The notes beneath the pieces are model-generated. The model was not told where the DNA came from. It ran no database searches and was given only the letters and a program-made list of their open reading frames with translations. 64,000 bases of DNA from Eggerthellaceae bacterium. GTDB lineage: Bacteria > Actinomycetota > Coriobacteriia > Coriobacteriales > Eggerthellaceae. The stretch's first letter is position 1. Each line of letters begins with the position of its first letter. A program made the translations under genes and the position numbers. Below are positions 39,152 through 55,333 of the stretch, piece by piece. The stretch lies in assembly GCA_009782605.1 (NCBI GenBank), contig WRIR01000012.1, positions 183-64,182 on the forward strand, given 5' to 3'.

Positions 39152-40216
39152 ATGAGCCCAAACATGCAAATAAGCGGCATCGAGAAGGCTATAGGCAGGA
39201 AAATCAGGCTCACCGCCGTCTATTGTCGGCGCATCCTCCTTGCAAAGAACCATCAAAAGTGCCCGTGGTACAAGAAGCTGAAGGCAAACCTGTCCGGGGG
39301 CTTTCTGGCCGACCAGTGGATCCTGTACGACTTGGACCACAACGACAGGAGGGAATACCTGTCCGAATACGACTGGTACCGCTCCCGCTACATAAACGAG
39401 CCCTTCAGCTTTTTGCTGAACAACAAGATAATCGCCTCGGAAATGCTGAAGCAGCATATCCGGGTCCCGGAGAACTACGTGATAAAGAACGGGGACTTCC
39501 TCGTGGACCTCAAAGGCGGGATGCTTGGGTATAATGAGGCGATCGAAGTGCTTAAGGCCAAAGGGCAGGTTTTCATAAAGCCGTTCGACAAAGGAAAGGG
39601 CACCGACATCAACCTCCTTTCGTATCGCGAGGGGCAGTTCTATGTCGATGCGAGGCCCTGCTCCGACAAGTCCCTGGCAGCCCTTTTGAAAAGCAGGAAG
39701 AACTGGTATATGAGCGAATCCGTGGAACAGAGCGACTATGCCTCAAACCTGTTCGAGAAGACGGCAAACACCATCAGGATCATCACCTTGAGGTCCCCAG
39801 AGACGAAGGAGCTCGTCATTTTCTTCGCAGTCCAAAGGATCGGGACAGAGAAGACCATACCGGTTGACAACGGCAGCCAAGGCGGGCTGATCTCGAAGAT
39901 CGACATCGGGACGGGCGTGCTTTCCGAAGCCCGCTCCCTGCATGGCCTTGCCGCCTACCCGAAGCACCCCGACTCCCACAGTCAGATCGAGGGAGTGGTC
40001 GTTCCCTTTTGGGAGGAGACGAAAAGACAGGTCCTCAGCCTGGCGAACAAGCTCCCCTATATGCATTTTGTCGCCTGGGATATCCTGATGACGCAGAAAG
40101 GGATATGCGTTATCGAGGCGAACACCTCTTCGGGGGTGAACATCATCCAGCTTTGGGGAGGGCAAAGAAACCGGGAGCTCGGTAATTTTTACCGCTTCCA
40201 TAACATTATCAACTAA
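39152..40216 (+). CDS. stand-alone sugar-transfer-associated ATP-grasp (RimK-related amide ligase-like) protein
   Basis: Motifs: FIKP..G..G, NTIRIITL, VDNGSQGGLISKIDIGTG and HFVAWDIL......CVIEANTSSG. These are shared with the other three ATP-grasp modules of the island. Confidence 0.7.
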   Translation: MSPNMQISGIEKAIGRKIRLTAVYCRRILLAKNHQKCPWYKKLKANLSGGFLADQWILYDLDHNDRREYLSEYDWYRSRYINEPFSFLLNNKIIASEMLKQHIRVPENYVIKNGDFLVDLKGGMLGYNEAIEVLKAKGQVFIKPFDKGKGTDINLLSYREGQFYVDARPCSDKSLAALLKSRKNWYMSESVEQSDYASNLFEKTANTIRIITLRSPETKELVIFFAVQRIGTEKTIPVDNGSQGGLISKIDIGTGVLSEARSLHGLAAYPKHPDSHSQIEGVVVPFWEETKRQVLSLANKLPYMHFVAWDILMTQKGICVIEANTSSGVNIIQLWGGQRNRELGNFYRFHNIIN

Positions 40217-40271
40217 CAATAGAGGTCGGCTTTAAAAGCGCATGTCGGATGATACGGATACATGAGGTGAT

Positions 40272-40910
40272 ATGAAGTACATTATTATGGCAGATGGGAA
40301 GAGCGACAGGTGGGACAACTACCTGTCTGTCCCCAAGCATTTCATAGAGATCGACGGGGAGCCCATCATCGAGCGCACGATACGCCTTCTGCACGCCTAT
40401 GACCAGAAAAGCGAGGTCATCGTCACCTCGCACAACAAGGACTATGAGCTTGCGGGCTCCACACGCTACGAGCCCCTTGACAATACCCTGGAAGTGGACA
40501 GGTTCACCCGAGAGCTCATAGTCGACGATACCTGCTTCCTCTACGGCGACACCTACTACACCGAAGACGCGATTCGCCGCATCATACAGACCGAGGCCGA
40601 GGACATCCTCTTTTTTGGGAACAGGGATTCGATCGTGGCTATCAAGATAAAGGACGGCGCCCTTTTCGAGGAGCACGTAGACCGGGTACGGGGCCTTTTC
40701 CTGATCGGGGCGATAGAGCACTGCATCGGATGGCAGGTGTACCAGTCGTTCCAGGGCCTGCCCTTCAACGGGAAGGGAATCGCCGACAAGTACATCCTCT
40801 TCAACGACAAGACCATGGATTTCAACGACCCGGAAGACTATTTGCGAAAAATCGGCAACTTCCCCTTGACAAACCCCGCGTTCCGCAGCATTTATGACCA
40901 GTCGACCTAG
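40272..40910 (+). CDS. NTP-transferase-like (MobA/LicC-type nucleotidyltransferase fold) protein
   Basis: N-terminus KYIIMADGKSDRW....PKHFIEIDGEPIIERTIRLL and DDTCFLYGDTYY. It is paralogous over its full length to residues 1-200 of the next ORF. Confidence 0.55.
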   Translation: MKYIIMADGKSDRWDNYLSVPKHFIEIDGEPIIERTIRLLHAYDQKSEVIVTSHNKDYELAGSTRYEPLDNTLEVDRFTRELIVDDTCFLYGDTYYTEDAIRRIIQTEAEDILFFGNRDSIVAIKIKDGALFEEHVDRVRGLFLIGAIEHCIGWQVYQSFQGLPFNGKGIADKYILFNDKTMDFNDPEDYLRKIGNFPLTNPAFRSIYDQST

Positions 40911-40922
40911 ACGGGGCCGTGC

Positions 40923-43910
40923 ATGGAGTTTGTCATAATATCAGGCGGGAACGGCGGTTTTTGGGAAGCACGTCAGGGCATGCTCGGCCGTCCGGCCAAG
41001 ATCGACGGAGAGACGCTGCTACAAAGGACGGCACGGCTTATCGGGGACTGCAACCCTGGAGGCAGTATCACGGTCGTTGCGGAAAACGACCCGGGCGTGC
41101 CGGAGGGCAGCGCCTTTTACCGCCTGCAGCAAGGCAGCCTGGAGATCGACCGCCTCCCCTATGAGCTGATCGAGGACGATACCTGCTTCCTTTTCGGGGA
41201 TGTCTTCTACACGCGTCCGAGCATGCTCAAGCTCATGGCCATCCCGACAAGCGATGTGGCCTTCTTCGGGTCAAAGGAACAGATCCTCGCCATCAAGGTG
41301 CACGATGCAGAGGCAATGAGGGCGCACGTCGACAGCATAAAAGAACGCTACGCCCAAGGAGAGATAGGCAGCTGCGGCGAATGGCAGCTCTATCAGTCGT
41401 TCACGGACCTTCCTTTTGGGGAGGCTGCCATCGCAGAGAACTACTTCCTGCTGTCCGCGGGTACGCGAAGCATCAGCAGCATTGAGGACTACCAGCAGCT
41501 CAGGAAGGCCCACAAGCGCAAAGCCGCCGCAAGGAAGCGCAGGGCGAGGAAGAAGGGGCGCCGAGACACCATCGAGAGAACCAAGAAGTTTTTATGGAAG
41601 GTACTCTCATTCAAGTTAGTTTTAGAAGGCTTCTCTATACCTCAGGCATTAGAATGGACCCACCGGGTCTATAGCGACCTTAGATGGAACAGGAGTGCGT
41701 CGTTGCGTGCTAAGCTGTGGGCTTACCGTCGTGGTTTTTTACCTGCACAGGTAAAAAGACTCGGGGTTTCAAGGATAGAGGCAGGCGGGCTAATCTCAGA
41801 AAGAGACTATCGTTTCATCATGCCTATTAACGGCATTTACAATAAATGGCTCCACAGCTTTTTTTTGAGAAAATATCTGTTTACTCCTTTCTCCGATTAT
41901 TTTGTTGAATGCTATTACCAAATCGGAAATAGAGACGGTCGACGCCAATTCATTCTCCTGCCTGATTGCCCTCAAGGCTATGGCGAAAATGCTCAAGATG
42001 TTTTGCAGCTTATTAAAGACAAGGGTTCTGTTGTAATAAAAAGGCTATCAGGAAAGAGTTATAAGAAAACCTACCATGTAAGCTATATTGAAAACACCTA
42101 CTTTATGGATGCACGAGAAATAACAGCACAAGATTTGGAAGAGTTTATTTCTCGATGCAAATCAGGAATCCTCCGAATTTTCGAACACCTGGAGTCTTCC
42201 TCTGACCACATATTGAATGTACAACTGATTATTATTAATGAATCAGGAAACGACCCTATTATCAGTGATGCTTTTGTCTTATGCAAACAATTCAAAACTG
42301 CTGTAAATTTTGGAAACTTTGAAAAAAAGGATTCTTTAAGGACAACTCAACTGATTAGAGTTGACGCAGAAACAGGGCGATACTCTTATGAGGGAATAGC
42401 AGAAACCGTCCCCTACTACCAAGAGATTAAAGAACAGGTTCGACGGATATGTCTTTTTGCAGTTACCCTTGAATTCATGGGTATAGCAATTACTATCGCT
42501 GATAACAGTTTCAAAATTACCCGCATGACCGCCAAGCCAGAGTATAAGAATTCATATACTTTCAGCGAATCTTCCACTTCTTATCTCTTGTCAAAGCTGG
42601 AAAAAAAGAATGCGAGTAAAAAAGGATTTATAAAAAAATCGAAGCACATTCGTCGCCAAATTGTATTAAGAATCCGAAGAAGATACACGCGAGCTTTCTT
42701 TCCACCGGGAGTCTACCCTTTTGTAGGAGCACGATGGACTTCACTAATCCTCAGTGACTTATGGATAAACAAAGATGCCACACTGAAAGAAAAACTATGG
42801 GCATACAAAAACGGTTTTCTTTCTTATCGAATCAAGCAATACGGCATTACCAAAGAAAACCGATTGAACTATATATCGGATCTTGAATACTATTGGCTGC
42901 GCCACATCAATAAAAAAGTAAGGATTGTTCTTGAAGACAAGATAACACCTCGTTATATTCTCCGTGACTATAAAGAGTGTTTTCCTGCCTATTACTACTA
43001 CGTTGCCCCTAGGCGCGGGGAAAATCGTATTATGCCTATGATAGATTGCCCAAAAGGGTATTCAGGAAAATATAGCGATGTCTTAAGATTAGTTGCCGAA
43101 AAGGGTGTGCTCGCTCTCAAGCCAGCCCAAGGCTCTCATGGTGACGGCTTCTTCAAATTCTCCTATGAGAACAATAAATACTATCTGAACTCTGAAGAAG
43201 TCAATGAAGAACAAGTTGAAGCTCTCTTCAAAGATGTCGATAATAAATATCTTATCACCGAGTATATTCAAATGCATCCTGAGCTGAAAAAAATATACGA
43301 GGGAGCAGTAAATACCCTTCGAATAGTTGTGTTCAAAAAAGACGGGAAAACGCCCGAAATCGGCAATGCATATATGCGCATTGGATCCAGCAAAACCGGG
43401 ACAGTAGACAATATGAGTGCCGGCGGCATGTACGCACAAATTGATACCGACACCGGACGCTACCACAAAGCCAAGAGCATCGAGAACAACCAAATCCTGC
43501 CATGCGAGTATCACCCTGATACGGGAGTAAAAATCGAAGGCTACCTCCCTAATTGGAATCTAACAAAACAGCTGGTTCTCGATATAGCACAAAAAATGCC
43601 ATTTCTTGAATATTTTGGATTTGATGTTGCGATAACCGAAAATGGTATTAAACTTCCTGAAATCAATAGATTCCCCGACTATCCAAAAATTGAAACACTC
43701 TCTGAAAACACCATTGATTATCTCCTCTACAAGCTGGAGCAAAAAAAATTGCGAGTTCACTATAATAAGAAAAGGTCAATAAGGTTGTTCAATTTGCCCA
43801 AAAGACCATTCACAGAGGAAGAACCGGGAACCGACTATTTGTACGAACAAGAACATGAGAATCTCAATGAACTTGAAGAATACCCGGAAGGCCACGAATA
43901 CTCTATATAG
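40923..43910 (+). CDS. tri-module fusion: NTP-transferase-like domain + K/R-rich linker + two tandem sugar-transfer-associated ATP-grasp modules
   Basis: Residues 1-200 parallel ORF 40272. The linker reads KAHKRKAAARKRRARKKGRR. Both modules open with RWNRSASLRAKLWAYRRGF / LWINKDATLKEKLWAYKNGF. Only the second keeps VDNMSAGGMYAQIDTDTG and FGFDVAIT.NGIKLPEIN. Confidence 0.7.
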   Translation: MEFVIISGGNGGFWEARQGMLGRPAKIDGETLLQRTARLIGDCNPGGSITVVAENDPGVPEGSAFYRLQQGSLEIDRLPYELIEDDTCFLFGDVFYTRPSMLKLMAIPTSDVAFFGSKEQILAIKVHDAEAMRAHVDSIKERYAQGEIGSCGEWQLYQSFTDLPFGEAAIAENYFLLSAGTRSISSIEDYQQLRKAHKRKAAARKRRARKKGRRDTIERTKKFLWKVLSFKLVLEGFSIPQALEWTHRVYSDLRWNRSASLRAKLWAYRRGFLPAQVKRLGVSRIEAGGLISERDYRFIMPINGIYNKWLHSFFLRKYLFTPFSDYFVECYYQIGNRDGRRQFILLPDCPQGYGENAQDVLQLIKDKGSVVIKRLSGKSYKKTYHVSYIENTYFMDAREITAQDLEEFISRCKSGILRIFEHLESSSDHILNVQLIIINESGNDPIISDAFVLCKQFKTAVNFGNFEKKDSLRTTQLIRVDAETGRYSYEGIAETVPYYQEIKEQVRRICLFAVTLEFMGIAITIADNSFKITRMTAKPEYKNSYTFSESSTSYLLSKLEKKNASKKGFIKKSKHIRRQIVLRIRRRYTRAFFPPGVYPFVGARWTSLILSDLWINKDATLKEKLWAYKNGFLSYRIKQYGITKENRLNYISDLEYYWLRHINKKVRIVLEDKITPRYILRDYKECFPAYYYYVAPRRGENRIMPMIDCPKGYSGKYSDVLRLVAEKGVLALKPAQGSHGDGFFKFSYENNKYYLNSEEVNEEQVEALFKDVDNKYLITEYIQMHPELKKIYEGAVNTLRIVVFKKDGKTPEIGNAYMRIGSSKTGTVDNMSAGGMYAQIDTDTGRYHKAKSIENNQILPCEYHPDTGVKIEGYLPNWNLTKQLVLDIAQKMPFLEYFGFDVAITENGIKLPEINRFPDYPKIETLSENTIDYLLYKLEQKKLRVHYNKKRSIRLFNLPKRPFTEEEPGTDYLYEQEHENLNELEEYPEGHEYSI

Positions 43911-43924
43911 TACTATGCGTCGAA

Positions 43925-46375
43925 ATGGGGGATTTGAAATTGAAAAAGAGGTTTGGGAAAACTAAAGACTACAAATATATTCTAAGTGGTCGTAACGCAG
44001 AAATCACAGAGTATCTTGGTTCAGAAACGGTAGTAAACATACCGGAAACTTTAAACAACTCTATTGTGGCCGCAATAGGTGAACGAGCTTTTTACAATAA
44101 TGAAAGTGTTACAAAAGTTTTTATACCGGCTTCTGTAAGTGCTTTGAGAAAGGAAGCTTTTTCATGTTGTAAAAATTTAATTAAGATCAATATAGACAAC
44201 GGGCTTTCCACTATTTCCTCTTTTTGTTTTTCGAATTGCAGCGCTTTAGACGCAATTATATTGCCAAAATCAGTTACTACTATTTATCGAGGAGCCTTTC
44301 GTAACTGCGTCGCACTCAAAGAAATTGAAATCCCCGAAGGGATTACTGTTTTAAGCGCAGAGTTGTTTTATGGTTGTGAGCGATTGGAGCAAGTTGGACT
44401 GCCTTATGGACTAGAGCGAATATACTCAGGTGCTTTTCAGAATTGTTCGAAGCTTCATACTTTTTACCACTATGGTAAAAGAAATATCAACTCTATAATG
44501 GTTATTGATAAGAACCTCAAAGAGTATGAATTCCCAACACGAATTACCCATATTGGCAACAGCGCATTTGAAGATTGCATTTCTTTATCCCAAGCAAGAA
44601 TTCCCCATAGAGTCAGCATTATTGGTGAAGGAACTTTCAAGAATTGTAAAGCTTTGACTACTGTTTATACACATAATCTATTGAGAGAAATTAAAAACGA
44701 GGCATTTTATGGTTGTGAAAATTTGAAGGTAATTAAGCTTCCTGTTTTTACTAGAAAAATAGGGCGAAATGCGTTCAATAGCCTCACTTGTATCCATTGT
44801 GAAAAAGCAGCCTTCGCTGCAACTTATGCTTCTCGCAATTATCTATCATGCCGTTATATTGAAGAATCAGCACCGTCTCTTTTCAGTCATATGATTCCCG
44901 CACAAAGCAAACGGGCAAAACTGAATAACCATCCTCTGTTCTATACAGAACAAGACCTTCGAGAATGCCAAGAAAAATTCGAAATGCGTCCCCCTTCCTA
45001 TAAAAAATCAGAAAAATCCTTTCGAACAGCAGAAGCAATAGAATCTTCCCGATTCGACTATGCAAATGGCATGTATACCAACAAAAATAGATCACAAAAA
45101 AGTAGAGCAGTTATTATGATGGCGGGAGGCCTGCTTTGTGGAGCCCGACATCAGGAGACATCTTTTGATAGCGGCAAATATTTTTTTGATACGAACTTCC
45201 TCCTTATAAAGGATCTTTTGAAACAGTCTGACTTTGCCATAGCAACGCTCGAATCCATGGTGTCTCCTTCTGCTCCTCTAACTGCTGAAGTTGAGTATGT
45301 TAACACCGCAAAACATCACAATGCTCCGGAATCATACTTAGGTGCAATTAGAAAAGCTTCGTTCGATGCAGTGATAAACGCCCAAAACCATGCGTACGAT
45401 ACTGGTGTTCAAGGCATTTTTGAAACACTCGATATGCAAAATAGATATCAACTGATGCATACCGGTGTTTTTGCCAGCACAGAGGATAAGCGATACCTTT
45501 TCCTTGAAATAAATGGCATTCGCATAGCTTGCTTGTCTTACCTTGATAGCGCAAAAGGGAGATTAAAGAAAGTGAATTTTAGCAGAATCGGACGAGAAAC
45601 CCTCCTTAATTATCTCAACAGTGACGAAGCAGAAAAAACACAAATAGGTCAAGATGTTGCAAATGCAAAGGCCGAAGGCGCAGAATTTATCATTGCTTTC
45701 TGTCATTGGGGAAAAGAGTATTCCCAGCAATTAACCGAGCGCCAGCTGCTCTTTAGCCAACAGGTCGCAGATGCTGGGGTTGATTACATTTTTGGTTCTC
45801 ATTCGCATTGCGTTCAACCTTACGATGTCATTACAGCAAGTGATGGTCGTCGAGTTCCGGTTTATTATTCGGCAGGAAGCCTAATATCGGATATCAGTGT
45901 GCGGCTTCCTATCACACGAGATGCCCTTATTGGTGAGCTGATATTGAAGAGAGACGAAGACGGACAAGTAACTATTGAACGTGAAGGATATTATCCTTGC
46001 AGAGTCGTGAATCTTGAAGAAGATGAGATAAACTACATGGTTGTTCCTACAGCCATGCAATTTGAAGAACGCACGCTCAGAAACAAACGCTTGGCTGATG
46101 CTGAGGGGCGAATAAAAAGAGCAGTAGGAACCAAGATAAACGAAAGAATCCCCCAGGAGATTCCTTTACTAATTAGCGAGCTAGCAATCCACAAAACCCC
46201 TGAATCCGAATTCGACATTGCAGAGGTAGCAAAACTTTTAGATGTCGAGTTTATAAAGAATAACGCCAACACAAAACTTAGCAACCTCACATACAGGATT
46301 AATAGTATAGACGAACACTCCGTTTTTGTTGGACTTCGCATAAAAGAACAAGAGCTCGATAGCACTAGTTCCTAG
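43925..46375 (+). CDS. BspA-type leucine-rich-repeat (LRR_5) + CapA/PGA_cap metallophosphatase-like fusion protein, no signal peptide
   Basis: The LRR units are of the type IGERAFYN...LRKEAFSCCKNL...ISSFCFSNCSAL...IYRGAFRNCVAL. The CapA blocks are ATLESMV, INAQNHAYD, AFCHWGKEY and FGSHSHCVQP. Confidence 0.75.
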   Translation: MGDLKLKKRFGKTKDYKYILSGRNAEITEYLGSETVVNIPETLNNSIVAAIGERAFYNNESVTKVFIPASVSALRKEAFSCCKNLIKINIDNGLSTISSFCFSNCSALDAIILPKSVTTIYRGAFRNCVALKEIEIPEGITVLSAELFYGCERLEQVGLPYGLERIYSGAFQNCSKLHTFYHYGKRNINSIMVIDKNLKEYEFPTRITHIGNSAFEDCISLSQARIPHRVSIIGEGTFKNCKALTTVYTHNLLREIKNEAFYGCENLKVIKLPVFTRKIGRNAFNSLTCIHCEKAAFAATYASRNYLSCRYIEESAPSLFSHMIPAQSKRAKLNNHPLFYTEQDLRECQEKFEMRPPSYKKSEKSFRTAEAIESSRFDYANGMYTNKNRSQKSRAVIMMAGGLLCGARHQETSFDSGKYFFDTNFLLIKDLLKQSDFAIATLESMVSPSAPLTAEVEYVNTAKHHNAPESYLGAIRKASFDAVINAQNHAYDTGVQGIFETLDMQNRYQLMHTGVFASTEDKRYLFLEINGIRIACLSYLDSAKGRLKKVNFSRIGRETLLNYLNSDEAEKTQIGQDVANAKAEGAEFIIAFCHWGKEYSQQLTERQLLFSQQVADAGVDYIFGSHSHCVQPYDVITASDGRRVPVYYSAGSLISDISVRLPITRDALIGELILKRDEDGQVTIEREGYYPCRVVNLEEDEINYMVVPTAMQFEERTLRNKRLADAEGRIKRAVGTKINERIPQEIPLLISELAIHKTPESEFDIAEVAKLLDVEFIKNNANTKLSNLTYRINSIDEHSVFVGLRIKEQELDSTSS

Positions 46376-46380
46376 AATCA

Positions 46381-46405
46381 AAGTAATCAACACAGCTGAT
46401 TACTT
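46381..46405 (+). terminator. AT-rich 9-bp hairpin between the two LRR-CapA paralogues (weak terminator/processing site candidate)
   Basis: aagtaatca (46381-46389) pairs with tgattactt (46397-46405) across a 7-nt loop. There is no strong T-run. Confidence 0.3.
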
Positions 46406-46458
46406 TAAGAGAGGGCAGTCAAGGAAAACAATTGTGGAACACAAGGGAGCGGCAGAGT

Positions 46459-49400
46459 ATGACCGGAACTAATCATGAAGCCAGGTCAAGAACAGAACAG
46501 GAACTAGGAGATAAGAAATTGGGCGTGGTTAAGGAAACAGAAAACTACAGGTTTACTGTGCTTGGTCACAGTGCAGAGATTCTTGAATATGTTGGTTCGA
46601 AAACATGTGTAGACATACCGGAAATCCTAGGTGACTGCACCGTTACTTCAATAGGCGAACGCGCCTTTTACAACACAGCTATCATCAAGGTAACCACACC
46701 AGACTCAGTAGTAGCGCTGGGAAAGGAAGCTTTTTCGTGCTGTAGAAACCTTGTCGAAATAAACATCAACACGAGCCTTACTACAATATCCTCTTTTTGC
46801 TTTTCAAGTTGTAGTGCCTTAAAAAAAGTGACTCTTCCAGAATCACTTACCACTCTTCATGAAGCAGCCTTCTATAATTGCAGCAATCTTGAAGAAGTTG
46901 AAATTCCGAGAGGAATTGCCGTCTTAAATGCAGAACTTTTTTTTGGCTGCGAAAAACTAAAGCAAATCGGGCTGCCCCATAACTTGAATCGGATATGCTC
47001 CGAAGTCTTTAAAAACTGTTCTAATCTCGAAAACTTTTACTATTGCAGCATACCAACCACCAAGCACATCATGATGAGTGCAAATCAAAAGAAAAGGACA
47101 TACGAGCTTCCTGATCACATCAGCCATATAGGAAAAAACGCATTTGAAAACTGCGCTTCTTTAAGAAAAATAAGAATACCTTATAAAGTAAGCATAATAA
47201 ATGAAGGGGTTTTTAAGAACTGCACAGTTTTAGCAAAAGTTCATGTGCATAGCTCATTAAAAGAGATAAAAAATGAAGCTTTTTATGGCTGTGAAAATTT
47301 GGAGGAGATTAAACTTCCGGGTTTTACAAAAAAAATTGGAGACAATGTATTTAGCCGAAAAACAGAAATTCTCTGCGAGGGAGAAGATTTTGGTGCAATA
47401 TATGCTGCTCAAAATGCTTTGCCATGTCGGTATATTGTGAAAACAACACCACCGCTCTCAAGCCATATGATTCCTTCTCAAAACGAACAGGTCAATCTCA
47501 GTGATTGCACCTCCTTTTATACGGAGGAAGACTTAAGAAAATGTGTAGAGAAATTTGAAATGCGCCCTCCTTCCTATGAGTACATTCAAAGGTCTAATAT
47601 GGCTGTTGAAGAAGAAATAGCTTCTTCTCGATTTGTTTATAAAGAAGGCAAATACATCAATAAAAATCGAACAGCCGAAGGTAGAGCAACAATCATGATG
47701 ACCGGAGATCTGATGGCTCTTCCTAGATATCAAGGGTTTTCGAGCAAAGCCGATCGATACATTTTTGATAGTAGTTTTCATTTTGTTAAGGATATTTTGC
47801 AACAGTCGGACTTTGCGATTGGAAATCTAGAATCTTTAGTAGCTCCCTCTGCGCCCCTGATGATTGAGACTGAATATGTTGATGGTGTCCTCCACCTGAA
47901 CGCTCCGGAATCATATTTAAGAGCTATAAAAGAAGCTTCTTTCGATGCTGTTATTAACGCACAAAACCACATTTATGATGCCGGTGTTCGAGGAATTTTT
48001 GAAACACTTGATATGCAAAATAAGTACCAATTAATGCACACCGGCGCTTTTGTCGGTAATGAGGACAAAAGATATTTAATGCTTGAGATAAATGGAATTA
48101 GAATAGCTTGCGTATCATATTTTGATCTCGCAAGGCAACCAACGAGGAGCGTGAATTTTACAAATATTGGAAAGCAAACTCTTTTTAGTCTTCTAGGTAT
48201 TCAAGAAACAGTATTACAGCAAATTACACAAGACATTGAGGATGCAAAAGCAGAAGGCGCTGAATTTATCATTGCTTTTTGTCACTGGGGAAAAGAATAT
48301 ACAAACGAATTGACAGACCGACAAATTCTCTTCAGTAAAACCATTGCAAAAGCCGGAGCAAACTATATTTTCGGGTCTCACCCACACTGTGTGCAGCCCT
48401 ATGATGTTATTACAACTGATGATGGGAGAAGTGTCCCGGTTTTTTATTCGGCAGGAAATTTTATGTCTGACAGTAGTGCGTGGTCGTCTGTTAGCAGAGA
48501 TACCATTATTGGAGAATTGGTTCTAAGGAAAGATGAAAGCAAGGGCGTATACATTGAAAGTAGCGGGTACTACCCTTGTAAAATAATGAATCTCGAAAAA
48601 GATTCCTTCACCTATACCGTTATTCCAACTGCTATGAAATTCGAAGGGAGCCCAGCCAAAAATAAATATTTATCAGACGCTGAAATAAAAATAGAAAAAA
48701 ATATAGGAGCAAAGATAAAAAAATTAATTCCTCAAGGAATAGTCCTAACGGTAATCAAAAAATCACAGGCAAAAGGCGATAGCGAAGCTTATCACAAGAC
48801 AAAACACTTAAAGACTGGAGATGATAGCCTTGTGTTTACCATCGAAGAGCTTTGTTATCTATTAAAAATAGAATTGCCGAAACAATATCAAGAGAATAGT
48901 AGTTTTTTTGTGACTCAGACATCTTTGTTCAATAGATTGGAAAACAAAGAAAAACTATTGAGAGAAATAAAGGAAACAGAAGATTACTGCTATCATCATT
49001 ATGAAGAAATCAAAGCTAACGCCGCACAGTTTAAGAATCATTACTGTGGCGTAGGGAATACAAGAAAAACTGAAACTGAGTTACTGGAAATGTTTGTTGA
49101 ATGGATTTATATTTTCAGGCCCTTAGGCTTTTATCCCGATGACTATTTTAATTATGAGCTATATGATAAGACGATTACAGAAGCTAATGAATTTATTAGT
49201 GGTGAATACAGAAGGAAAATTGCAAAAGTATGCAGAAATAATTCGTATTTAAAATACTTTCTTAACAAAGTTTTTTTCCTTAAAACTTTCAGCAGATATG
49301 TAAAACGCGACTATTTAGATACGACCTCATGCACCTTGAGCGAATTTAAAGCATTTACCGAAAAAAATCCTCAATTTTTCGGTAAACCAATCCTGGGTTC

Positions 49401-50013
49401 CGGTGGTCACAATTCCGGTATTTTTGAATCGAACGACAATGATATACAACTGCTTCAGAAATGCAAAAAGGAGAAACTGATTGTTGAAGAAATTGTTAGG
49501 CAACACGAAAGTTTGGCTGCATTTAATAAAAGTACCTTAAACACAATAAGAATATATACTTTGCTAACAGCCAATAATGAGGCTATTGTAATGCTCGCCG
49601 GAGCTCGTTTTGGAAGAGCAAGTGCTGTAGTTGACAATTTTCATAGCGGCGGTCTAACGGCTGGTGTTGATATTCTTACGGGCATGGTTGTCACTGACGC
49701 CATAAATAGAGACCATGTTCGATACTCCGTACATCCAGATTCTTTATTGGAATTTCGAGGGTTTCAGGTTCCTTGCTGGAATCAGGCAATAGAGACTGTA
49801 AAAGAATCGGCGAAACAGATGCCCCATGTTAGACATGTAGGATGGGATGTCGCCATAACTAATCAAAATGAAATCGAACTTATCGAAGGAAATTCATTAC
49901 CAAACTTTGATATTACGCAAGCAGTAGATCAGATTGGGAAGAAGTACCTTTATGAAGAACATATTAACGAACTGGAAGCTGTTGCAAAGAAGAAAGACTC
50001 GAAAAGAAAGTAG
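46459..50013 (+). CDS. BspA-type LRR + CapA/PGA_cap + sugar-transfer-associated ATP-grasp triple fusion protein
   Basis: AAGGGAG lies 9 nt before ATG 46459; the track ORF opens with TTG at 46432. The LRR and CapA parts look about 60-70% identical by eye to ORF 43925. The C-terminal ATP-grasp has FFGKPILGSGG, NTIRIYTL, VDNFHSGGLTAGVDILTG and VGWDVAITNQNEIELIEGNS. Confidence 0.75.
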   Translation: MTGTNHEARSRTEQELGDKKLGVVKETENYRFTVLGHSAEILEYVGSKTCVDIPEILGDCTVTSIGERAFYNTAIIKVTTPDSVVALGKEAFSCCRNLVEININTSLTTISSFCFSSCSALKKVTLPESLTTLHEAAFYNCSNLEEVEIPRGIAVLNAELFFGCEKLKQIGLPHNLNRICSEVFKNCSNLENFYYCSIPTTKHIMMSANQKKRTYELPDHISHIGKNAFENCASLRKIRIPYKVSIINEGVFKNCTVLAKVHVHSSLKEIKNEAFYGCENLEEIKLPGFTKKIGDNVFSRKTEILCEGEDFGAIYAAQNALPCRYIVKTTPPLSSHMIPSQNEQVNLSDCTSFYTEEDLRKCVEKFEMRPPSYEYIQRSNMAVEEEIASSRFVYKEGKYINKNRTAEGRATIMMTGDLMALPRYQGFSSKADRYIFDSSFHFVKDILQQSDFAIGNLESLVAPSAPLMIETEYVDGVLHLNAPESYLRAIKEASFDAVINAQNHIYDAGVRGIFETLDMQNKYQLMHTGAFVGNEDKRYLMLEINGIRIACVSYFDLARQPTRSVNFTNIGKQTLFSLLGIQETVLQQITQDIEDAKAEGAEFIIAFCHWGKEYTNELTDRQILFSKTIAKAGANYIFGSHPHCVQPYDVITTDDGRSVPVFYSAGNFMSDSSAWSSVSRDTIIGELVLRKDESKGVYIESSGYYPCKIMNLEKDSFTYTVIPTAMKFEGSPAKNKYLSDAEIKIEKNIGAKIKKLIPQGIVLTVIKKSQAKGDSEAYHKTKHLKTGDDSLVFTIEELCYLLKIELPKQYQENSSFFVTQTSLFNRLENKEKLLREIKETEDYCYHHYEEIKANAAQFKNHYCGVGNTRKTETELLEMFVEWIYIFRPLGFYPDDYFNYELYDKTITEANEFISGEYRRKIAKVCRNNSYLKYFLNKVFFLKTFSRYVKRDYLDTTSCTLSEFKAFTEKNPQFFGKPILGSGGHNSGIFESNDNDIQLLQKCKKEKLIVEEIVRQHESLAAFNKSTLNTIRIYTLLTANNEAIVMLAGARFGRASAVVDNFHSGGLTAGVDILTGMVVTDAINRDHVRYSVHPDSLLEFRGFQVPCWNQAIETVKESAKQMPHVRHVGWDVAITNQNEIELIEGNSLPNFDITQAVDQIGKKYLYEEHINELEAVAKKKDSKRK

Positions 50014-50293: not shown

Positions 50294-52750
50294 ATGATGC
50301 GTGATTTTATACACCAAGGTGAAATCAGCATACGCTACATACTTCGCAAAGCTGCCGCGCCTTCCGATATTCTTGTCGTCACGTTTCCCGGTGCACATGG
50401 ATGGCGGGAAAATGCCATGCCGCATTTGGGGTATGCCTATTTGAACGCCATTGCTTCCTTCAATGTCAACGGACTCTTTCTTAAGGGAGGCATTGAAGAA
50501 GAGGCGAGCACCCTTGGGCGCATGGTCTGTGTTAATCGCGATTTCAAGGTTGAACGTACAGTAGTCGAGCTCATCAACAGAGCAAAAGAGGAAACCGGCA
50601 GTACCCGCGTTATTGCTATTGGTTCAAGTATGGGCGGATGGTGCAGCGCATACTATGGGCTGAAGTATGGGTATGATGTTATCTCGGGTTCACCAGCGTA
50701 TGAGTTCAAAAGCGATCAAAGCGTGGAATTCGTTGCAGGGGGCACCAGTGAGGAAGATTATGGGTTTTGTAACTCCCTTATGCCCAATGTCATAAAGAAT
50801 GCGGGAGCGGACGGCTACGACAAGTTTTTTTTCATCTCGTGGGGAGAGGGCGAGGGGAACTGGGTACGAAAGGAGCATGGCCCCCAATTTCTTGCAGCTT
50901 TAGATGAGGCGAGCATTAAATACAAGCATAAGCTGCATAGCTTCTCTTCTCACTGGGCTGTTCATTGGTTATTTCCAGATGTCTTAACTCGACAGCTTTC
51001 AGCCGCACTTGGACTACCGGTAAGCGAAGAACAAGAGGCGTTAACGGATTTACAAAAAGCAAGCACAGAGATTAAAAAAATGAAAGAAACCCTCAAAGCG
51101 GAAATTGACGCTCTTGATGGGTCCGCGCCGAACTACAGCAATGCTTACATTGTAGGCTATGGCAGTAATAGCCGCGACATACAGCTCCGTACCTTCGTTT
51201 ATGGAGCGCAGGGATATCATTGGTGGCGAAGAGGGGAGGGGCAAGAGAAAGCCTACAATATTGGTCCTCTTGACGTATTCTGGGGATCAGCCACCGTCAT
51301 AAACGAGGACTATGCTACATCTTTTTGGTTTCATCAGACACTGCTTAATTTCTATAAAACCGAAGGAAACCAAGATGCGTGGGAGCTGCTCGATAAAAGT
51401 ACACGCCAGTTTTTCTACCAAGTTGATGCGGTTGCGAAAGTGGCGAAGACATATAACAGTTGGTGGACGGCAGTACGCCGGATGCATTTCTTCCTTGATT
51501 GGGCGAATGTGCTTGATGGCCATAACGTGCCGGACGGCATTACTGCCCAAGTAACCGATACGCTCAATATCCTCCTCGATATACAGCTGGCCATAAACTT
51601 CAATGCGACGAATCAATATCGTGTCCTTCTTGCCTTGACTCATGCAACACAGTATTTCCGGAACAGTGCAGCTTTTTTTGAAAAAGCATCCATGGCGGAG
51701 CTTCATGGTTTTGCGGCATTGAATAGCTATTACTTTGACAAGAATGGGATATGTGTGTTTCAGCAAGTGCGTGCCCAACACGCACTGCGCACACAGGTTA
51801 ACGTGCTTATCGAGTTCATAGTCGGGAATGAGTTTTCTCATGACCCAATAATGAAGAAAATCAAACGGCATGCAGAGAAAATTGAAAACGCGACCAGGCA
51901 CCTCATACGTCCCAACGGGCAAATACCGAATCTTGGACATACTGTCGGGGGGAAAACCAAGCTGGCACGTTCAGGTGGAAACCTCATCTTGCCGACATCC
52001 AATCTGGCAATACTCGATGAAGAGGGAACATACATCACCATCAACAGCGGCAACCCGTGCCATTCGGCGTACAAGCATTGCGACTTGCTCTCGTTCACGT
52101 TCTTCTATGATGGGCGCCTGCTTGTTGCAGATGCGGGCGGCGGTGTCGGCGCACTTGCGGATTTTTCGTGCTCCGCGATAGCGCACTCAGCGTTGATCTG
52201 CGACGACAGCGATTACGTCATTCCTGAGTACAGCGATTTCACCACAATCGATGCGGTTTCAGAACATGAGGACTATGTCTTGCTCGGGATGTCGCACCGG
52301 CTGTATCCGGATGTGGAGCTGCGCCGTGCCTTTTTGTGGCTCAAGCCGAATATCGTGATCCTGCTTGACTCTGCCGAGTCCGGCACAGAACATGCCTACG
52401 TGCAGAACTTCTTGCTCGAAAAGGATGCCCAGCAATTCCTGTCGATCACGCAACAGGGCAACAGCTGCGACCTCGAAACCTTCACTGGCACAACGGATGC
52501 CGACGATTACGAGCACCTGCGCGGCTCGATTATCTCCAACCTTAAGAAGCCTGCGCGGGCCATGAACCTTGCATACACGCAGAAGGGCACGTCGGCAAGC
52601 TATGTGACCGTGCTTGAGGCCCACAGCGGCAAAGAGGGTGAGATCGCCATCAAGTCTGTGCAGGTTGACGGTGGAAATGTTAAGATAACGCCCGTCAAGG
52701 GCAGCACAAAAGTAATCCCCCTTGATGTCGAGGCGGGTCAGTTGATATGA
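50294..52750 (+). CDS. alpha/beta-hydrolase-like N-terminal domain fused to heparinase II/III-like (alpha/alpha toroid + beta-sandwich) domain
   Basis: N-terminus ILVVTFPGAHGW...VIAIGSSMGGWCSAYYGLKYG (GxSxG nucleophile elbow, reminiscent of Asp2). C-terminus HSAYKHCDLLSFTFFYDGRLLVADAGG......AHSALICDD, typical of heparinase II/III family proteins. Confidence 0.6.
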   Translation: MMRDFIHQGEISIRYILRKAAAPSDILVVTFPGAHGWRENAMPHLGYAYLNAIASFNVNGLFLKGGIEEEASTLGRMVCVNRDFKVERTVVELINRAKEETGSTRVIAIGSSMGGWCSAYYGLKYGYDVISGSPAYEFKSDQSVEFVAGGTSEEDYGFCNSLMPNVIKNAGADGYDKFFFISWGEGEGNWVRKEHGPQFLAALDEASIKYKHKLHSFSSHWAVHWLFPDVLTRQLSAALGLPVSEEQEALTDLQKASTEIKKMKETLKAEIDALDGSAPNYSNAYIVGYGSNSRDIQLRTFVYGAQGYHWWRRGEGQEKAYNIGPLDVFWGSATVINEDYATSFWFHQTLLNFYKTEGNQDAWELLDKSTRQFFYQVDAVAKVAKTYNSWWTAVRRMHFFLDWANVLDGHNVPDGITAQVTDTLNILLDIQLAINFNATNQYRVLLALTHATQYFRNSAAFFEKASMAELHGFAALNSYYFDKNGICVFQQVRAQHALRTQVNVLIEFIVGNEFSHDPIMKKIKRHAEKIENATRHLIRPNGQIPNLGHTVGGKTKLARSGGNLILPTSNLAILDEEGTYITINSGNPCHSAYKHCDLLSFTFFYDGRLLVADAGGGVGALADFSCSAIAHSALICDDSDYVIPEYSDFTTIDAVSEHEDYVLLGMSHRLYPDVELRRAFLWLKPNIVILLDSAESGTEHAYVQNFLLEKDAQQFLSITQQGNSCDLETFTGTTDADDYEHLRGSIISNLKKPARAMNLAYTQKGTSASYVTVLEAHSGKEGEIAIKSVQVDGGNVKITPVKGSTKVIPLDVEAGQLI

Positions 52751-52765
52751 AGCGAGGCAAGGTAG

Positions 52766-53584
52766 ATGCTCTACAAGGTCAGTGTTAACCAATCCATCCT
52801 CGATTTGTTGTCCGTTCGGCATGTCTTGATGCTGAGCAGCAGGTATCATCGCGACATCAGCATCAAGATCGGGGATACGGTGGTCTTTGCAGACGACCTT
52901 GAGGTATACCCCTATACCACGTTCATGGCGGGAAATGCGCTCTTCAGCATGGGCTCTTTCAGTTACTCGCGCTCAGAGCTCGGCGGGGACGCGGGCAGGA
53001 ACAACGTGCAGCAGGTCCAGGTCGGGCGCTACTGCTCGATAGCCGACAACGTGCGGGTCTTCCAAGGCAACCACCGCATGGACGCATACACTACCAGCAG
53101 CTTCATTTACGCATTCCCCGGCTTCCGGCACGAGACGTGGCATGTCAGGGAAAGGGCGAAGGAAAAAGGGATCGAAAGGCCGGCTGCCCTCGCATTGGGG
53201 GATGACGATGTTTGCCAGACCGTAAGAATCGGCAACGATGTCTGGATCGGCTCCCATGTGGCATTGAAGCCGGGCATACGCATCGGCGACGGTTCCTGCA
53301 TCGGCACGGGGGCGCTTGTTACCAAGGATGTGCCGCCCTATGCGATAGTTGCAGGCGTGCCCGCCAAGGTTGTCAAGTACCGTTTCGATGACAGCGTGAT
53401 AGAGCAGCTGCTCGCGCTCAGGTGGTGGGACTACGACTTTTTAGACTTCGCCGTGCACCCCGAAGAGCCGATAGACGCTTTTATCAAGGCAGTGAAAGAG
53501 CAGGTAGAGAGCAACAAGATACTGCCGTACAGCTCGGACCCGATACGGGCAAAGGACATACTGGGATTAAGGAGTGGCACATAA
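52766..53584 (+). CDS. hexapeptide-repeat acyltransferase of the xenobiotic acyltransferase (XAT; Vat/CatB-like) class
   Basis: Motifs: GNHRMDAYTTSSF, VRIGNDVWIGSHVALKPGIRIGDGSCIGTGALVTKDVPPYAIVAGVPAKVVKYRF and LLALRWWDY. Confidence 0.8.
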   Translation: MLYKVSVNQSILDLLSVRHVLMLSSRYHRDISIKIGDTVVFADDLEVYPYTTFMAGNALFSMGSFSYSRSELGGDAGRNNVQQVQVGRYCSIADNVRVFQGNHRMDAYTTSSFIYAFPGFRHETWHVRERAKEKGIERPAALALGDDDVCQTVRIGNDVWIGSHVALKPGIRIGDGSCIGTGALVTKDVPPYAIVAGVPAKVVKYRFDDSVIEQLLALRWWDYDFLDFAVHPEEPIDAFIKAVKEQVESNKILPYSSDPIRAKDILGLRSGT

Positions 53585-53817
53585 TGGAACAGCAGTTCAT
53601 TGACCTTCTGAACAAGGTAAACGAAGAGATCTTCGACAACCCCGATGCCGATCTCGTCGAGGATGGCGTTATAGACAGCCTCGACATCATGAACCTCGTT
53701 GCCGGGCTGGAGCAGGTCTTCGGGGTTGACTTCGACCCGGACGACATAATACCGGAGAACTTCGCATCCCCCGAAGCCCTGTGGGGGCTCGTCCAGCGCT
53801 ACCAGGCAGAGAGGTGA
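53584..53817 (+). CDS. D-alanyl-carrier-protein-like (DltC-like) aminoacyl carrier protein
   Basis: 77 aa. The ATG overlaps the preceding TAA (TAATG). The Ser attachment context is EDGVIDSLDIMNLVAGLEQVFGV, and length and layout match DltC. Confidence 0.75.
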   Translation: MEQQFIDLLNKVNEEIFDNPDADLVEDGVIDSLDIMNLVAGLEQVFGVDFDPDDIIPENFASPEALWGLVQRYQAER

Positions 53818-53821
53818 CAGT

Positions 53822-55333
53822 ATGCCGGTGCTGAAGTCCGTGACGCAGTGGCTTGATGCCACGGCAGAGAGGCTGCCCGACAAGGTCGCGTTCGGCGAGG
53901 ACAAGGCAGGGACGTTGACCTTTGCGCAGCTGCGCGGCGCTTCGCGTGCAACGGGCACGTTCTTGGCGAAACGGGGAATAAACAAGCAGCCGGTTCTGGT
54001 TGCCCTGGGTAAGACTCCGCAGTGCGTAGCGGCGATGCTCGGGGCAGCATATGCCAACTGCCCGTATACGCCGCTGGATGTTGACATGCCGCCAGGGCGC
54101 ATCCGCAAGGTTATCGACACCCTGCAACCGGCCGCCTGTATCACGGATGCCAAGCACGAGCAGCTGATGCTTGAAAGTGGGTTGGCGCAGGACAGCATCC
54201 TGCTCTACGAGTGCGTATCGAACACCCCCATAGACGAAGATGCTTTGGCAGACGTCCATGAAAGGCGTATCAGCACAGACTTGCTGTACATCCCTTTCAC
54301 CAGCGGCTCTACGGGTGCGCCGAAAGGCGTTGCGGTAAGCAACGGCAACGTGATCGACTACACGCCCCAGGCTGCCGAGAAGTTCGGCTTTAACGATGAG
54401 ACGGTTTTCGGGCAAAGCGTGCCTTTTGTTTTCGACGGCTCTATACTCTACGTCTACCAGACGCTGCTGAACGGCTGCACGGATTGGATAATCTCGAAAG
54501 TCGACCTGATGTTCGCTGCAAAGACGGTGGACTTCCTTAACAGGCACCGGTGCAACACGGTTTACATGATGCCGACCCTCTACAGCATAATTGCGAAAAG
54601 CGGCATATTGAACAAATCCAAGCCTGAGTATCTGCAAAAGTGCCTATTCGTGGGAGAGGTGATGCCCAATAGCGTGTTGAACATATGGCGGCGAGCATTG
54701 CCGAAGGCGACATTTGCGAACCTGTTCGGGCCCACGGAGGCAACAACCTTTTTATGCTATGTCGTCGACCGCGACTTCACCGACGAAGAGCCTTTGCCTA
54801 TCGGGACGCCGTATGAAAACAACGAAGTCTTGCTATTGGACGAGAACGGCACCGAGACGAAACGCGGCGAGGTGGGCGAGATGTGCGTTAGGGGGGCAAA
54901 AGTGACGCAGGGGTACTACAACGACCCCGAAAGGTCGGCCGCAGTGTTCGTGCAGAACCCCTTGAACAGGGCATACCGCGAGACAATCTACAGGACAGGC
55001 GACTTTGCATACCTCAATGAGCAGGGCGAGTACATGTTCATGGGGCGCAAGGACTTCCAGGTAAAGCTCGCGGGGCACCGTATCGAGCTCGGGGAGGTCG
55101 AAGTTCAGGCAATGGCAATGCCTGGGGTGGAGCTCTGCGCCTGCGTGCTCGATGAGGAGGCACAAAGACTTGTGTTGTTCTATGTCGGAGAGGCCGGGCA
55201 AAAGGAGCTGAGGGACGAACTGAAGCGCAAGCTGCAGGGCTATATGGTTCCCGCGCAGATAACGTCGATCGATGCCATGCCCAGGACAGGCAGCGGCAAG
55301 ATAGACAGGATCGCTTTGAAAGAGGCCCTTTGA
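53822..55333 (+). CDS. DltA-like amino acid--carrier protein ligase (adenylate-forming enzyme)
   Basis: 503 aa. Motifs: LLYIPFTSGSTGAPKGV, FGPTE, YRTGD, GRKDFQVKLAGHRIELGEVE and PRTGSGKIDR. Confidence 0.8.
   Translation: MPVLKSVTQWLDATAERLPDKVAFGEDKAGTLTFAQLRGASRATGTFLAKRGINKQPVLVALGKTPQCVAAMLGAAYANCPYTPLDVDMPPGRIRKVIDTLQPAACITDAKHEQLMLESGLAQDSILLYECVSNTPIDEDALADVHERRISTDLLYIPFTSGSTGAPKGVAVSNGNVIDYTPQAAEKFGFNDETVFGQSVPFVFDGSILYVYQTLLNGCTDWIISKVDLMFAAKTVDFLNRHRCNTVYMMPTLYSIIAKSGILNKSKPEYLQKCLFVGEVMPNSVLNIWRRALPKATFANLFGPTEATTFLCYVVDRDFTDEEPLPIGTPYENNEVLLLDENGTETKRGEVGEMCVRGAKVTQGYYNDPERSAAVFVQNPLNRAYRETIYRTGDFAYLNEQGEYMFMGRKDFQVKLAGHRIELGEVEVQAMAMPGVELCACVLDEEAQRLVLFYVGEAGQKELRDELKRKLQGYMVPAQITSIDAMPRTGSGKIDRIALKEAL

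Follow-up and report, generated by a model that had tools for sequence, protein, structure and literature searches.

The window analyzed here, a 64,000-nucleotide stretch of DNA from a gut Eggerthellaceae bacterium, carries a cassette of three genes on the plus strand in the order transferase, carrier, and ligase. The first gene (52766..53584) encodes a 272-aa XAT-class hexapeptide transferase, identified from the ORF call and Pfam/NCBIfam matches. The second (53584..53817) encodes a 77-aa phosphopantetheine carrier protein (PF00550) with its serine in the motif GVIDSLD, and the third (53822..55333) a 503-aa stand-alone adenylation enzyme, or aminoacyl-carrier ligase, with AMP-binding and AMP-binding_C domains. 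The TAA stop codon of the XAT gene (53582-53584) meets the ATG of the carrier gene (53584-53586) in a TAATG overlap, and a 4-nt gap (53818-53821) separates the carrier end from the ligase start; the translational coupling proposed in a first-pass annotation is thus borne out by the ORFs. In a sister locus from another Eggerthellaceae MAG (L084), the same genes occur in the same order, with XAT, carrier, and ligase 86, 91, and 82% identical, respectively. Immediately upstream of the cassette, an 818-aa α/β-hydrolase and heparinase II/III-like protein is encoded on the plus strand (50294..52750; Pfam). It is preceded in the same one-directional island by plus-strand genes for ATP-grasp_ST ligases, a nucleotidyltransferase, and LRR_5 and PGA_cap (CapA-like) proteins (39152..50013; Pfam). 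The enzyme encoded at 346..1050 on the plus strand, earlier called AcpS, is indeed a 4'-phosphopantetheinyl transferase (234 aa; PF01648, 71.9 bits) and may prime the carrier.

The ligase is an intact adenylating enzyme of the amino-acid type, as had been claimed. It scores 314 bits against the amino-acid adenylation model TIGR01733, 3 bits under the cut-off of 317.4, and retains the core motifs TSGSTG, FDGS, NLFGPTE, YRTGD, and GKIDR (A3, A5, A7, and A8 cores and the A10 lysine). The aspartate of FDGS (FDxS), which binds the α-amino group, is kept; together with the A3 to A10 cores, the A10 lysine, and the adjacent PP-binding protein, it identifies a stand-alone type II adenylation enzyme. 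Orthology to DltA can be rejected, as the scores against the DltA equivalogs are far below cut-off (266.9 bits against 559.85 for TIGR01734 and 268.8 against 476 for NF003417), the protein branches outside the DltA clade, and the pocket differs. Compared with DltA of B. cereus and Levilactobacillus, three pocket positions hold Gly, Leu, and Val in place of Leu, Met, and Cys; the amino-binding aspartate is present, and charged residues are otherwise lacking. The likeness to DltA that was earlier ascribed to the ligase therefore does not extend to its specificity pocket. By alignment to B. cereus DltA, and with anchor positions that we take to be those of GrsA-PheA, the approximate Stachelhaus-type code is D-G-L-Y-L-V-L-T-F-K. 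This code equals no specificity code familiar to us, and for that reason we name no substrate. The pocket loop of the window ligase also has a one-residue deletion relative to all relatives, and nucleotide homology between the window and L084 stops exactly at the ligase stop codon.

Phylogenetically, the ligase falls in a separate stand-alone clade whose sister (99/99) is a Clostridia clade found in Dlt-like operons, and this ligase clade is in turn a weakly supported sister of true DltA (80/71). Because the "B. subtilis" locus (L055) held no bona fide DltA, the reference sequences were those of Levilactobacillus, C. difficile, and Macrococcus. The Clostridia operons run ligase, carrier, and MBOAT, in some cases led by a TIGR00035 racemase; an MBOAT is present in 19/20 loci and the racemase in 5/20. 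More distant relatives of the ligase in Desulfovibrionaceae are paired with a PglD-type hexapeptide transferase and a carrier in amino-sugar clusters, so a triad of ligase, carrier, and left-handed β-helix (LbH) enzyme recurs there. The Desulfovibrionaceae search returned ligases of 37-41% identity and did not recover the 50-68% group. The carrier scores 32.6 bits against PF00550, and its best NCBIfam match is DltC at sub-threshold values (26.5 bits with a cut-off of 52.35 for TIGR01688; 32 with a cut-off of 68 for NF003464). Rather than DltC, it is a generic PP-binding protein that keeps the conserved serine. From the statement that ligase and carrier have the sizes and motifs of DltA and DltC, the adenylation motifs and the carrier serine can be retained, while both proteins fail the equivalog thresholds. 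The carrier is 29-42% identical to carriers of the Clostridia Dlt-like operons, and by these sequence relationships the ligase and carrier share an evolutionary kinship with Dlt-like systems.

The leading gene encodes a hexapeptide-repeat protein (Hexapep) whose best partial matches are Vat and CatB, in agreement with its earlier placement in the Vat/CatB class. The protein is a CatB/Vat-like LbH with an extension of ~75 aa at the N terminus and a helical one of ~45 aa at the C terminus, both specific to its subfamily. In the AF2 model (pLDDT 90), the top Foldseek matches are CatB8, VatA, and PaXAT with a probability of 1.00. His103 aligns with the catalytic histidine of VatA and CatB (NHRMD) and is invariant in 46 relatives; the LbH fold and the extended loop bearing this histidine assign the protein to the XAT class. 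Orthology to a resistance enzyme is rejected, since scores against the Vat, CatB, and ApmA equivalogs (106, 96, and 76 bits) lie far under their cut-offs of 300, 350, and 550 bits. The window protein has the fold and catalytic histidine loop in common with the XAT family (Vat, CatB, PaXAT, and ApmA) at a core identity of 28-33%, but it differs from the resistance enzymes in its extra terminal segments and in being linked to a carrier and ligase instead of standing alone. All solved relatives use acetyl-CoA. We know of no XAT-class enzyme with a carrier-bound donor, and a literature search for such an enzyme gave no relevant result. Among LbH enzymes, LpxA and LpxD take acyl-ACP donors. We infer that the XAT may be the transferase of a carrier-bound aminoacyl group.

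The association of this XAT subfamily with carriers extends beyond the two Eggerthellaceae loci. Where a locus encodes an XAT at least 52% identical and includes downstream sequence, a carrier and an ANL ligase adjoin the XAT in 4/4 cases. The module itself can be swapped: in L082 and L083, the pair of XAT and 818-aa protein is accompanied by an SDR, an ACP, and a different, non-NRPS ANL ligase. For more distant XAT loci, a carrier is nearby in only 2 of ~155 among the matches listed, and one of these (L048) is a glycan locus with a Wzx flippase, a WecG/GT2 transferase, and a divergent ligase. A profile scan with the XAT alignment gave, among the matches listed, only distant XATs (30-45% identity), almost none with a carrier or ligase. 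Searches of 399 Clostridia genomes and of 300 genomes from the class of the host yielded no close XAT. Independent cases are accordingly few, with the window and L084 forming one lineage, L082 and L083 another, and L048 a distant one; the contig of L086 ends within the XAT gene. Because the set recurs in L084 and the subfamily is carrier-linked wherever downstream sequence exists, the linkage of XAT, carrier, and ligase, judged from gene content and order, exceeds chance. This supports the earlier suggestion that the acyltransferase works jointly with the carrier and ligase.

The 818-aa protein, which is cytoplasmic, is a constant upstream partner of the XAT that the first-pass annotation had left out. 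Pfam detects Hepar_II_III_C and weak Abhydrolase matches, corresponding to an N-terminal α/β-hydrolase domain and a heparinase II/III-like body. Its GSSxGG nucleophile elbow is invariant in four homologues of 37-76% identity, and look-alikes in the Atlas are auto-named YqiA/YcfP- or Asp2-like hydrolases fused to Hepar_II_III_N/C. In L082, L083, L084, and L086, this protein is encoded immediately 5' of the XAT, and carrier and ligase modules are seen beyond the XAT in L082 to L084. Judging by its domains, the hydrolase could be a rival candidate for the transfer step. Homologues of the 818-aa protein and window-type ligases also occur on contigs of matching size and source (23736, 82848, and 9875 bp) with no close XAT listed, a match that is a weak indicator of co-location, does not establish adjacency, and does not show the XAT to be absent.

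Ligase, carrier, and LbH enzyme are encoded together within a polymer gene island. A TagF-like gene adjoins the island, which also contains genes of the nucleotidyltransferase, ATP-grasp_ST, and PGA_cap types. GC content is 0.60-0.70 across the window's first 38 kb and drops to 0.37-0.40 at 42-50 kb. The island genes upstream of the cassette are conserved in L084, and those at 39152-50013 likely make the acceptor or further decorations. The island has no sugar genes that would make an acceptor, such as those for an aminotransferase or dehydratase, and no TM segments were found in the island proteins checked (39152-55333), including the 818-aa protein. An envelope or glycan context is likewise seen in L084, L082/L083, L086 (glycosyltransferases), L048 (Wzx, WecG), and L237 (DegT-GT2).

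One feature of the sister locus bears on the chirality of the amino acid. In L084, XAT, carrier, and ligase are followed by a TIGR00035 amino-acid racemase gene that overlaps the ligase end and is translationally coupled to it, which points to a D-amino acid. The window itself lacks this gene, and a tBLASTN search of the window with the L084 racemase found no credible remnant (best E-value, 0.13). The ancestral cassette probably used a D-amino acid. In the literature, a search for Dlt-like systems associated with a racemase of the aspartate type gave no relevant result.

Several known systems resemble parts of this arrangement. Like DltABCD, the window places a stand-alone adenylation enzyme of ~500 aa beside a carrier of ~78 aa, and the nearest sampled relatives of its ligase adjoin DltB-like MBOATs. 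It differs from DltABCD in running transferase-carrier-ligase and in its putative transferase, which is soluble and cytoplasmic. The DltB MBOAT (PF03062) and DltD (PF04914) had no match in the window, as first stated, or in the 1.95-Mb assembly, while control genomes were matched; because the assembly is 83% complete, this does not prove their absence. With the DltA and DltC thresholds failed and DltB and DltD not found, the cassette does not qualify as a canonical Dlt system, and the proposed departure from canonical D-alanylation holds.

The parallel previously drawn with AlmEFG stands for its logic and falls short in its components. In Vibrio cholerae El Tor, AlmEFG adds glycine to lipid A (PMC4278540). 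The logic common to AlmEFG and the proposed module is that a ligase charges a small carrier with an amino acid and a dedicated acyltransferase on the cytoplasmic side delivers it to an envelope precursor, with no DltB or DltD. They differ in that the window's transferase candidate is an LbH (XAT) enzyme; AlmG is a membrane protein of the lipid A acyltransferase family, and as far as we know Gram-positive actinobacteria such as Eggerthellaceae have no lipid A. An AlmG-type Lip_A_acyltrans gene (PF03279) had no match in the 83%-complete genome, so membership in AlmEFG is rejected. Carrier-dependent acyl decoration within a surface-glycan locus is also known from the P. syringae viosamine island (vioS, vioR, acp, and vioB; PMC3927599) and from the V. 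cholerae O1 tetronate genes wbeK-O (wbeL; PMC3441752). These loci, like the window, group genes for a carrier, for an enzyme that activates or condenses, and for an acyltransferase of the hexapeptide type. They transfer hydroxy-acyl groups to amino sugars via NeuD/PglD/VioB-type LbH enzymes, whereas the window's donor is read as an amino acid, its LbH enzyme is of the XAT class, and its island has no amino-sugar genes. The cassette is an unstudied version of a recurring design and not a new principle.

We propose, with confidence that is evenly balanced, that the cassette is a cytoplasmic, carrier-dependent aminoacylation module in a horizontally acquired cell-wall-polymer island, with a wall-glycopolymer or peptide precursor as its acceptor. 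The adenylation enzyme would activate a neutral amino acid to the aminoacyl-AMP and thioesterify it to the phosphopantetheine arm of the 77-aa carrier, itself primed by a phosphopantetheinyl transferase such as the one at 346-1050. The XAT, through its catalytic histidine, would then take the aminoacyl group off the carrier thioester and attach it, via a hydroxyl or amino group, to a precursor that is soluble or lies at the membrane face. This precursor would be handled by the 818-aa protein and the upstream ATP-grasp and CapA-like enzymes. An intracellular transferase would in this way replace the extracytoplasmic DltB/DltD route. This reading is favored by the gene coupling, the domains and ligase motifs, the Clostridia sister clade, the L084 racemase, the 4/4 linkage of close XATs, L048, the Desulfovibrionaceae triad, the XAT histidine and fold, the failure to find MBOAT, DltD, or Lip_A_acyltrans in the genome, and the precedent of LpxA and LpxD. 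Against it stand the acetyl-CoA dependence of all solved XAT relatives, the small number of independent linkage cases, the elbow of the 818-aa protein and the co-location of its homologues with window-type ligases where no close XAT is listed, the window's lack of a racemase, the pocket-loop deletion, the lack of acceptor-sugar genes, and the 83% completeness of the genome.

In a rival reading, the α/β-hydrolase domain of the 818-aa protein would unload the carrier via an acyl-serine onto a glycan held by the heparinase-like body, leaving the XAT as an ordinary acetyl-CoA enzyme that acetylates the same acceptor or caps the aminoacyl amino group. The invariant elbow, the Asp2- or YqiA/YcfP-type names of look-alikes with Hepar_II_III domains, the constant position 5' of the XAT, the contig matches, and the acetyl-CoA use of solved XATs all fit such a scheme, and the α/β-hydrolases SyrC and CmaE shuttle aminoacyl groups off carriers. 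However, the gene that overlaps the carrier start is that of the XAT and not that of the 818-aa protein; combinations of LbH enzyme, carrier, and ligase are also found with a different LbH class and no 818-aa protein; the contig matches indicate co-location only and do not imply that an XAT is absent; and an editing thioesterase is an equally good reading of the hydrolase domain. We consider this division of labor rather unlikely, at perhaps one chance in a few.

The remaining explanations dispense with either the wall polymer, the amino acid, or the joint action of the three genes. It is improbable that the genes form a minimal type II NRPS-like set for a small diffusible thiotemplated metabolite with no role in wall decoration: the ligase's scores against NRPS adenylation domains do match those against DltA, and type II prolyl-carrier ligases are among the solved structures closest to it around the pocket, but condensation, thioesterase-release, and tailoring genes are absent, and all contexts are of the envelope/glycan kind (TagF-like, ATP-grasp_ST, PGA_cap, glycosyltransferases, Wzx, and MBOAT). 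Still less probable is a carrier loaded with another small acid, e.g., a hydroxy acid, as in carrier-dependent sugar N-acylation. The FDxS aspartate, the score at the threshold of the amino-acid adenylation model, and the coupling of the ligase to an amino-acid racemase in L084 all argue for an amino acid, despite the SDR, ACP, and non-NRPS ANL ligase joined to the XAT and its partner in L082/L083 and despite the V. cholerae O1 tetronate and P. syringae viosamine carriers, which reportedly hold non-amino acyl groups. A stand-alone xenobiotic or antibiotic acetyltransferase beside an unrelated ligase/carrier pair is very improbable. The CatB-related annotation, XAT fold, and catalytic histidine are what such an enzyme would have, but the equivalog scores, the subfamily-specific extensions, the overlap of the XAT stop with the carrier start, and the carrier and ligase linkage kept across swapped modules lead us to reject a stand-alone resistance gene.

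Returning to the aminoacylation module, a more specific form of it is conceivable, though we hold it tentatively and on balance doubt it. A Dlt-type ligase and carrier would have been rewired to a soluble XAT, giving a cytoplasmic, MBOAT-independent route in Gram-positive Coriobacteriia by which a (D-)amino acid reaches a wall-polymer or peptide precursor, with the first XAT to use an aminoacyl carrier and with an Asp2-like hydrolase/heparinase-like protein as its acceptor-binding partner.

Amino-acid esters on wall polymers determine surface charge, resistance to cationic peptides, and host recognition. To our knowledge, the only well-studied routes are Dlt, in which an MBOAT and DltD act outside the membrane, and AlmEFG, which acts on lipid A. 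If the proposed module is real, a ligase/carrier lineage related to Dlt is able to supply a soluble intracellular transferase of the LbH type, and enzymes of the XAT type, which annotation commonly takes for antibiotic-resistance acetyltransferases, can serve in biosynthesis by transferring aminoacyl groups, a role that would bear on resistance-gene annotation in gut metagenomes. The analysis further points to numerous and seemingly unstudied Dlt-like operons in gut Clostridia, which might attach a D-amino acid different from alanine.

The three coupled open reading frames proposed in the first-pass annotation were confirmed, comprising an XAT-like gene (52766-53584; 272 amino acids [aa]), a carrier gene (53584-53817; 77 aa), and a ligase gene (53822-55333; 503 aa). 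The XAT stop codon and the carrier ATG have one base in common within TAATG, and a 4-nt gap separates the carrier from the ligase. The XAT-like protein matches Hexapep, and its best partial matches are Vat, CatB, and ApmA, all far under cutoff. The Dlt-like description of the ligase and carrier stood for the Pfam domains (AMP-binding plus AMP-binding_C, and PP-binding, respectively) and failed at the family level, as the DltA and DltC cutoffs were not reached. DltC is the top NCBIfam match of the carrier, under cutoff, and the ligase scored about 268 bits against DltA models (cutoffs of 476 and 560) and 314 bits against the amino acid adenylation model TIGR01733 (cutoff of 317.4). The reported lack of DltB and DltD extends to the rest of the host assembly (1.95 Mb, 30 contigs, 83% complete), in which searches for MBOAT, DltD, and the lipid A acyltransferase family gave no match. 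The gene at 346-1050, previously called AcpS, does encode a PPTase (PF01648), although at 234 aa it is Sfp-like in size.

The cassette forms the final part of a one-directional island (approximately 39.1 to 55.3 kb) bordered by an opposite-strand TagF-like gene on one side and the only tyrS of the genome on the other; a 224-nt spacer ahead of tyrS (55334-55557) marks the right edge. Upstream of the cassette, Pfam searches identified an ATP-grasp_ST ligase, a nucleotidyltransferase, a 995-aa nucleotidyltransferase/ATP-grasp protein, two LRR_5 plus PGA_cap proteins, one with an added ATP-grasp domain, and an 818-aa protein (50294-52750) with a weak α/β-hydrolase N terminus and a heparinase II/III-like body. 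No transmembrane segments were found in the upstream island proteins checked. GC content is between 0.60 and 0.70 across the window's first 38 kb, drops to 0.37 to 0.40 at 42 to 50 kb, and is approximately 0.57 over the cassette.

Alignment shows that the ligase retains every adenylation core motif, along with the A10 Lys and the FDGS Asp, which occupies the position that binds the α-amino group. In a tree that took in DltA of three Firmicutes, two NRPS domains, and other outgroups, the window ligase and its orthologue in L084, an Eggerthellaceae MAG locus on a 525-kb contig, were placed in a 10-row clade sister to a Clostridia clade (support of 99/99); the 27-row clade that contains them (99/100) has a weakly supported sister relationship to true DltA (80/71). 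Of the 399 Clostridia genomes sampled, 55 contain relatives of the ligase (42 to 48% identity), in operons encoding the ligase, a carrier, a 525- to 530-aa MBOAT, and proteins of approximately 360 and 190 aa. The MBOAT, present in 19 of 20 Clostridia loci (L194 to L213; e.g., L195:8161-14001), scores 141 bits against the DltB model, under the cutoff of 375, and a TIGR00035 amino acid racemase lies immediately upstream in 5 of the 20. At L210:4249-11259, L211:5574-12472, and L212:8611-13987, adenylation paralogues in tandem (two or three genes) share a single carrier, a 385-aa MBOAT, and an approximately 290-aa protein; one MBOAT system of this type may therefore install several different amino acids. 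Desulfovibrionaceae relatives (37 to 41% identity) lie within amino-sugar clusters with a DegT-GT2 fusion, KAS III, SDRs, and a carrier; at two of these loci, the ligase is immediately adjacent to a PglD-type LbH transferase. Clusters such as L237:827-12562, along with L236, L239, and L240, hold two KAS III genes, two SDRs, the DegT-GT2 fusion, the ligase relative, the PglD-type LbH gene, and a carrier; this type further holds an Antibiotic_NAT-like protein, an esterase, and a formyltransferase-like protein.

We read the specificity pocket from alignment to Bacillus cereus DltA and to relatives, numbered by what we take to be the GrsA-PheA anchor positions. The pocket is approximately D-G-L-Y-L-V-L-T-F-K, with no charged residue and a bulky Val at the position of the DltA Cys, and the solved structures nearest in this region are stand-alone prolyl-carrier ligases and DltA. 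From these features, we infer that the substrate is a neutral, probably small, amino acid; the pocket comparison suggested in the first-pass annotation points to no single one. At pocket position 239, the Clostridia sister-clade ligases instead carry Lys or Arg (FDACLKE); together with the racemase, this residue suggests that those systems use a D-amino acid with an acidic side chain and not D-Ala. One residue after PTEAT, present in all 25 aligned relatives including L084, is missing from the window ligase (54730-54750; residues ~304 to 310), in the loop supplying pocket positions 330 and 331, and this deletion may change specificity or weaken the enzyme.

L084 has the same upstream gene set as the window, with identities of 76% for the 818-aa protein, 86% for XAT, 91% for the carrier, and 82% for the ligase. 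In L084, a gene for a 270-aa member of the TIGR00035 "amino acid racemase" subfamily overlaps that of the ligase, a link that argues for use of a D-amino acid by the ancestral cassette. The two loci are homologous at the nucleotide level (79% across 3.3 kb) precisely up to the stop codon of the ligase and no farther; no racemase remnant was found in the window, including the 224-nt spacer, and the single Asp/Glu-type racemase of the host genome is on another contig. Located 3' of the L084 racemase (L084:13411-20501) are a PGA_cap plus GDSL fusion, a second ApmA-like XAT-class gene (287 aa), an S11 D-Ala-D-Ala carboxypeptidase-domain protein, and an AlgX/DHHW protein, all missing from the window.

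We consider it about an even chance that the cassette performs carrier-dependent cytoplasmic aminoacylation with XAT as the transferase. The best structural matches of the XAT AF2 model (pLDDT of 90) are CatB8, VatA, and PaXAT; His103 aligns to the catalytic His of such enzymes and is invariant in 46 relatives, and the subfamily has extensions of ~75 N-terminal and ~45 C-terminal residues. Among the matches listed, a carrier lies at most 4 kb away in 6 of 160 loci with XAT relatives: four with XAT at least 52% identical and downstream sequence present (the window, L084, L082, and L083) and two distant ones (L048 and L120). L082 and L083 contain a homologue of the 818-aa protein and XAT, together with a FabG-like SDR, an ACP, and an ANL ligase of another type (468 aa); the carrier and ligase module has therefore been swapped while XAT and its 818-aa partner stayed. 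In L048 (5984-15297), from a Nocardioidaceae MAG, a putative carrier and an XAT-class hexapeptide gene are flanked by a Wzx flippase gene on one side and by Asn-synthase, NAD-synthase-like, WecG, and GT2 genes on the other; a divergent ANL ligase is encoded upstream.

In a rival reading, the hydrolase domain of the 818-aa protein, instead of XAT, unloads the carrier. The gene for this protein is directly 5' of XAT in the window, L082, L083, L084, and L086; the GSSxGG elbow of the protein is invariant among homologues; and its look-alikes in the Atlas are YqiA/YcfP- or Asp2-type hydrolases fused to Hepar_II_III domains. The family is rare (19 proteins at an E value of ≤1e-30 among 8,000 candidates scored in a word-index search; homologues P0242 to P0259), and homologues occur on contigs matching in size and source three window-type ligase contigs (23,736, 82,848, and 9,875 bp) and that of the XAT P0005 (24,391 bp), which argues for co-location with the ligase or XAT in more lineages. 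We regard unloading by this protein as possible, at roughly half the likelihood given to XAT; it may instead bind the acceptor or be an editing thioesterase, and its role is the chief uncertainty of the mechanism.

With XAT as the transferase, the cassette resembles Dlt and AlmEFG (PMC4278540) in the first two steps and is a member of neither, so the proposed Alm parallel holds for those steps and, with no lipid A acyltransferase-family match in the assembly, not for membership. Two carrier-dependent systems for sugar acylation, the Vibrio cholerae O1 tetronate set (PMC3441752) and the Pseudomonas syringae viosamine island (PMC3927599), likewise have a soluble hexapeptide-type transferase. Searches of 300 genomes from the class of the host and of 399 Clostridia genomes gave no close XAT. 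The pairing of XAT with the carrier and ligase is rare among the sequences surveyed, and module recombination is its probable origin. Three features are particular to this locus: its LbH enzyme is of the XAT class, that enzyme is constantly paired with the hydrolase/heparinase-like protein, and the ligase and carrier are directly related to those of MBOAT-type Dlt-like operons. The contexts of the Clostridia and Desulfovibrionaceae relatives indicate that the ligase family serves envelope decoration via MBOAT or LbH transferases.
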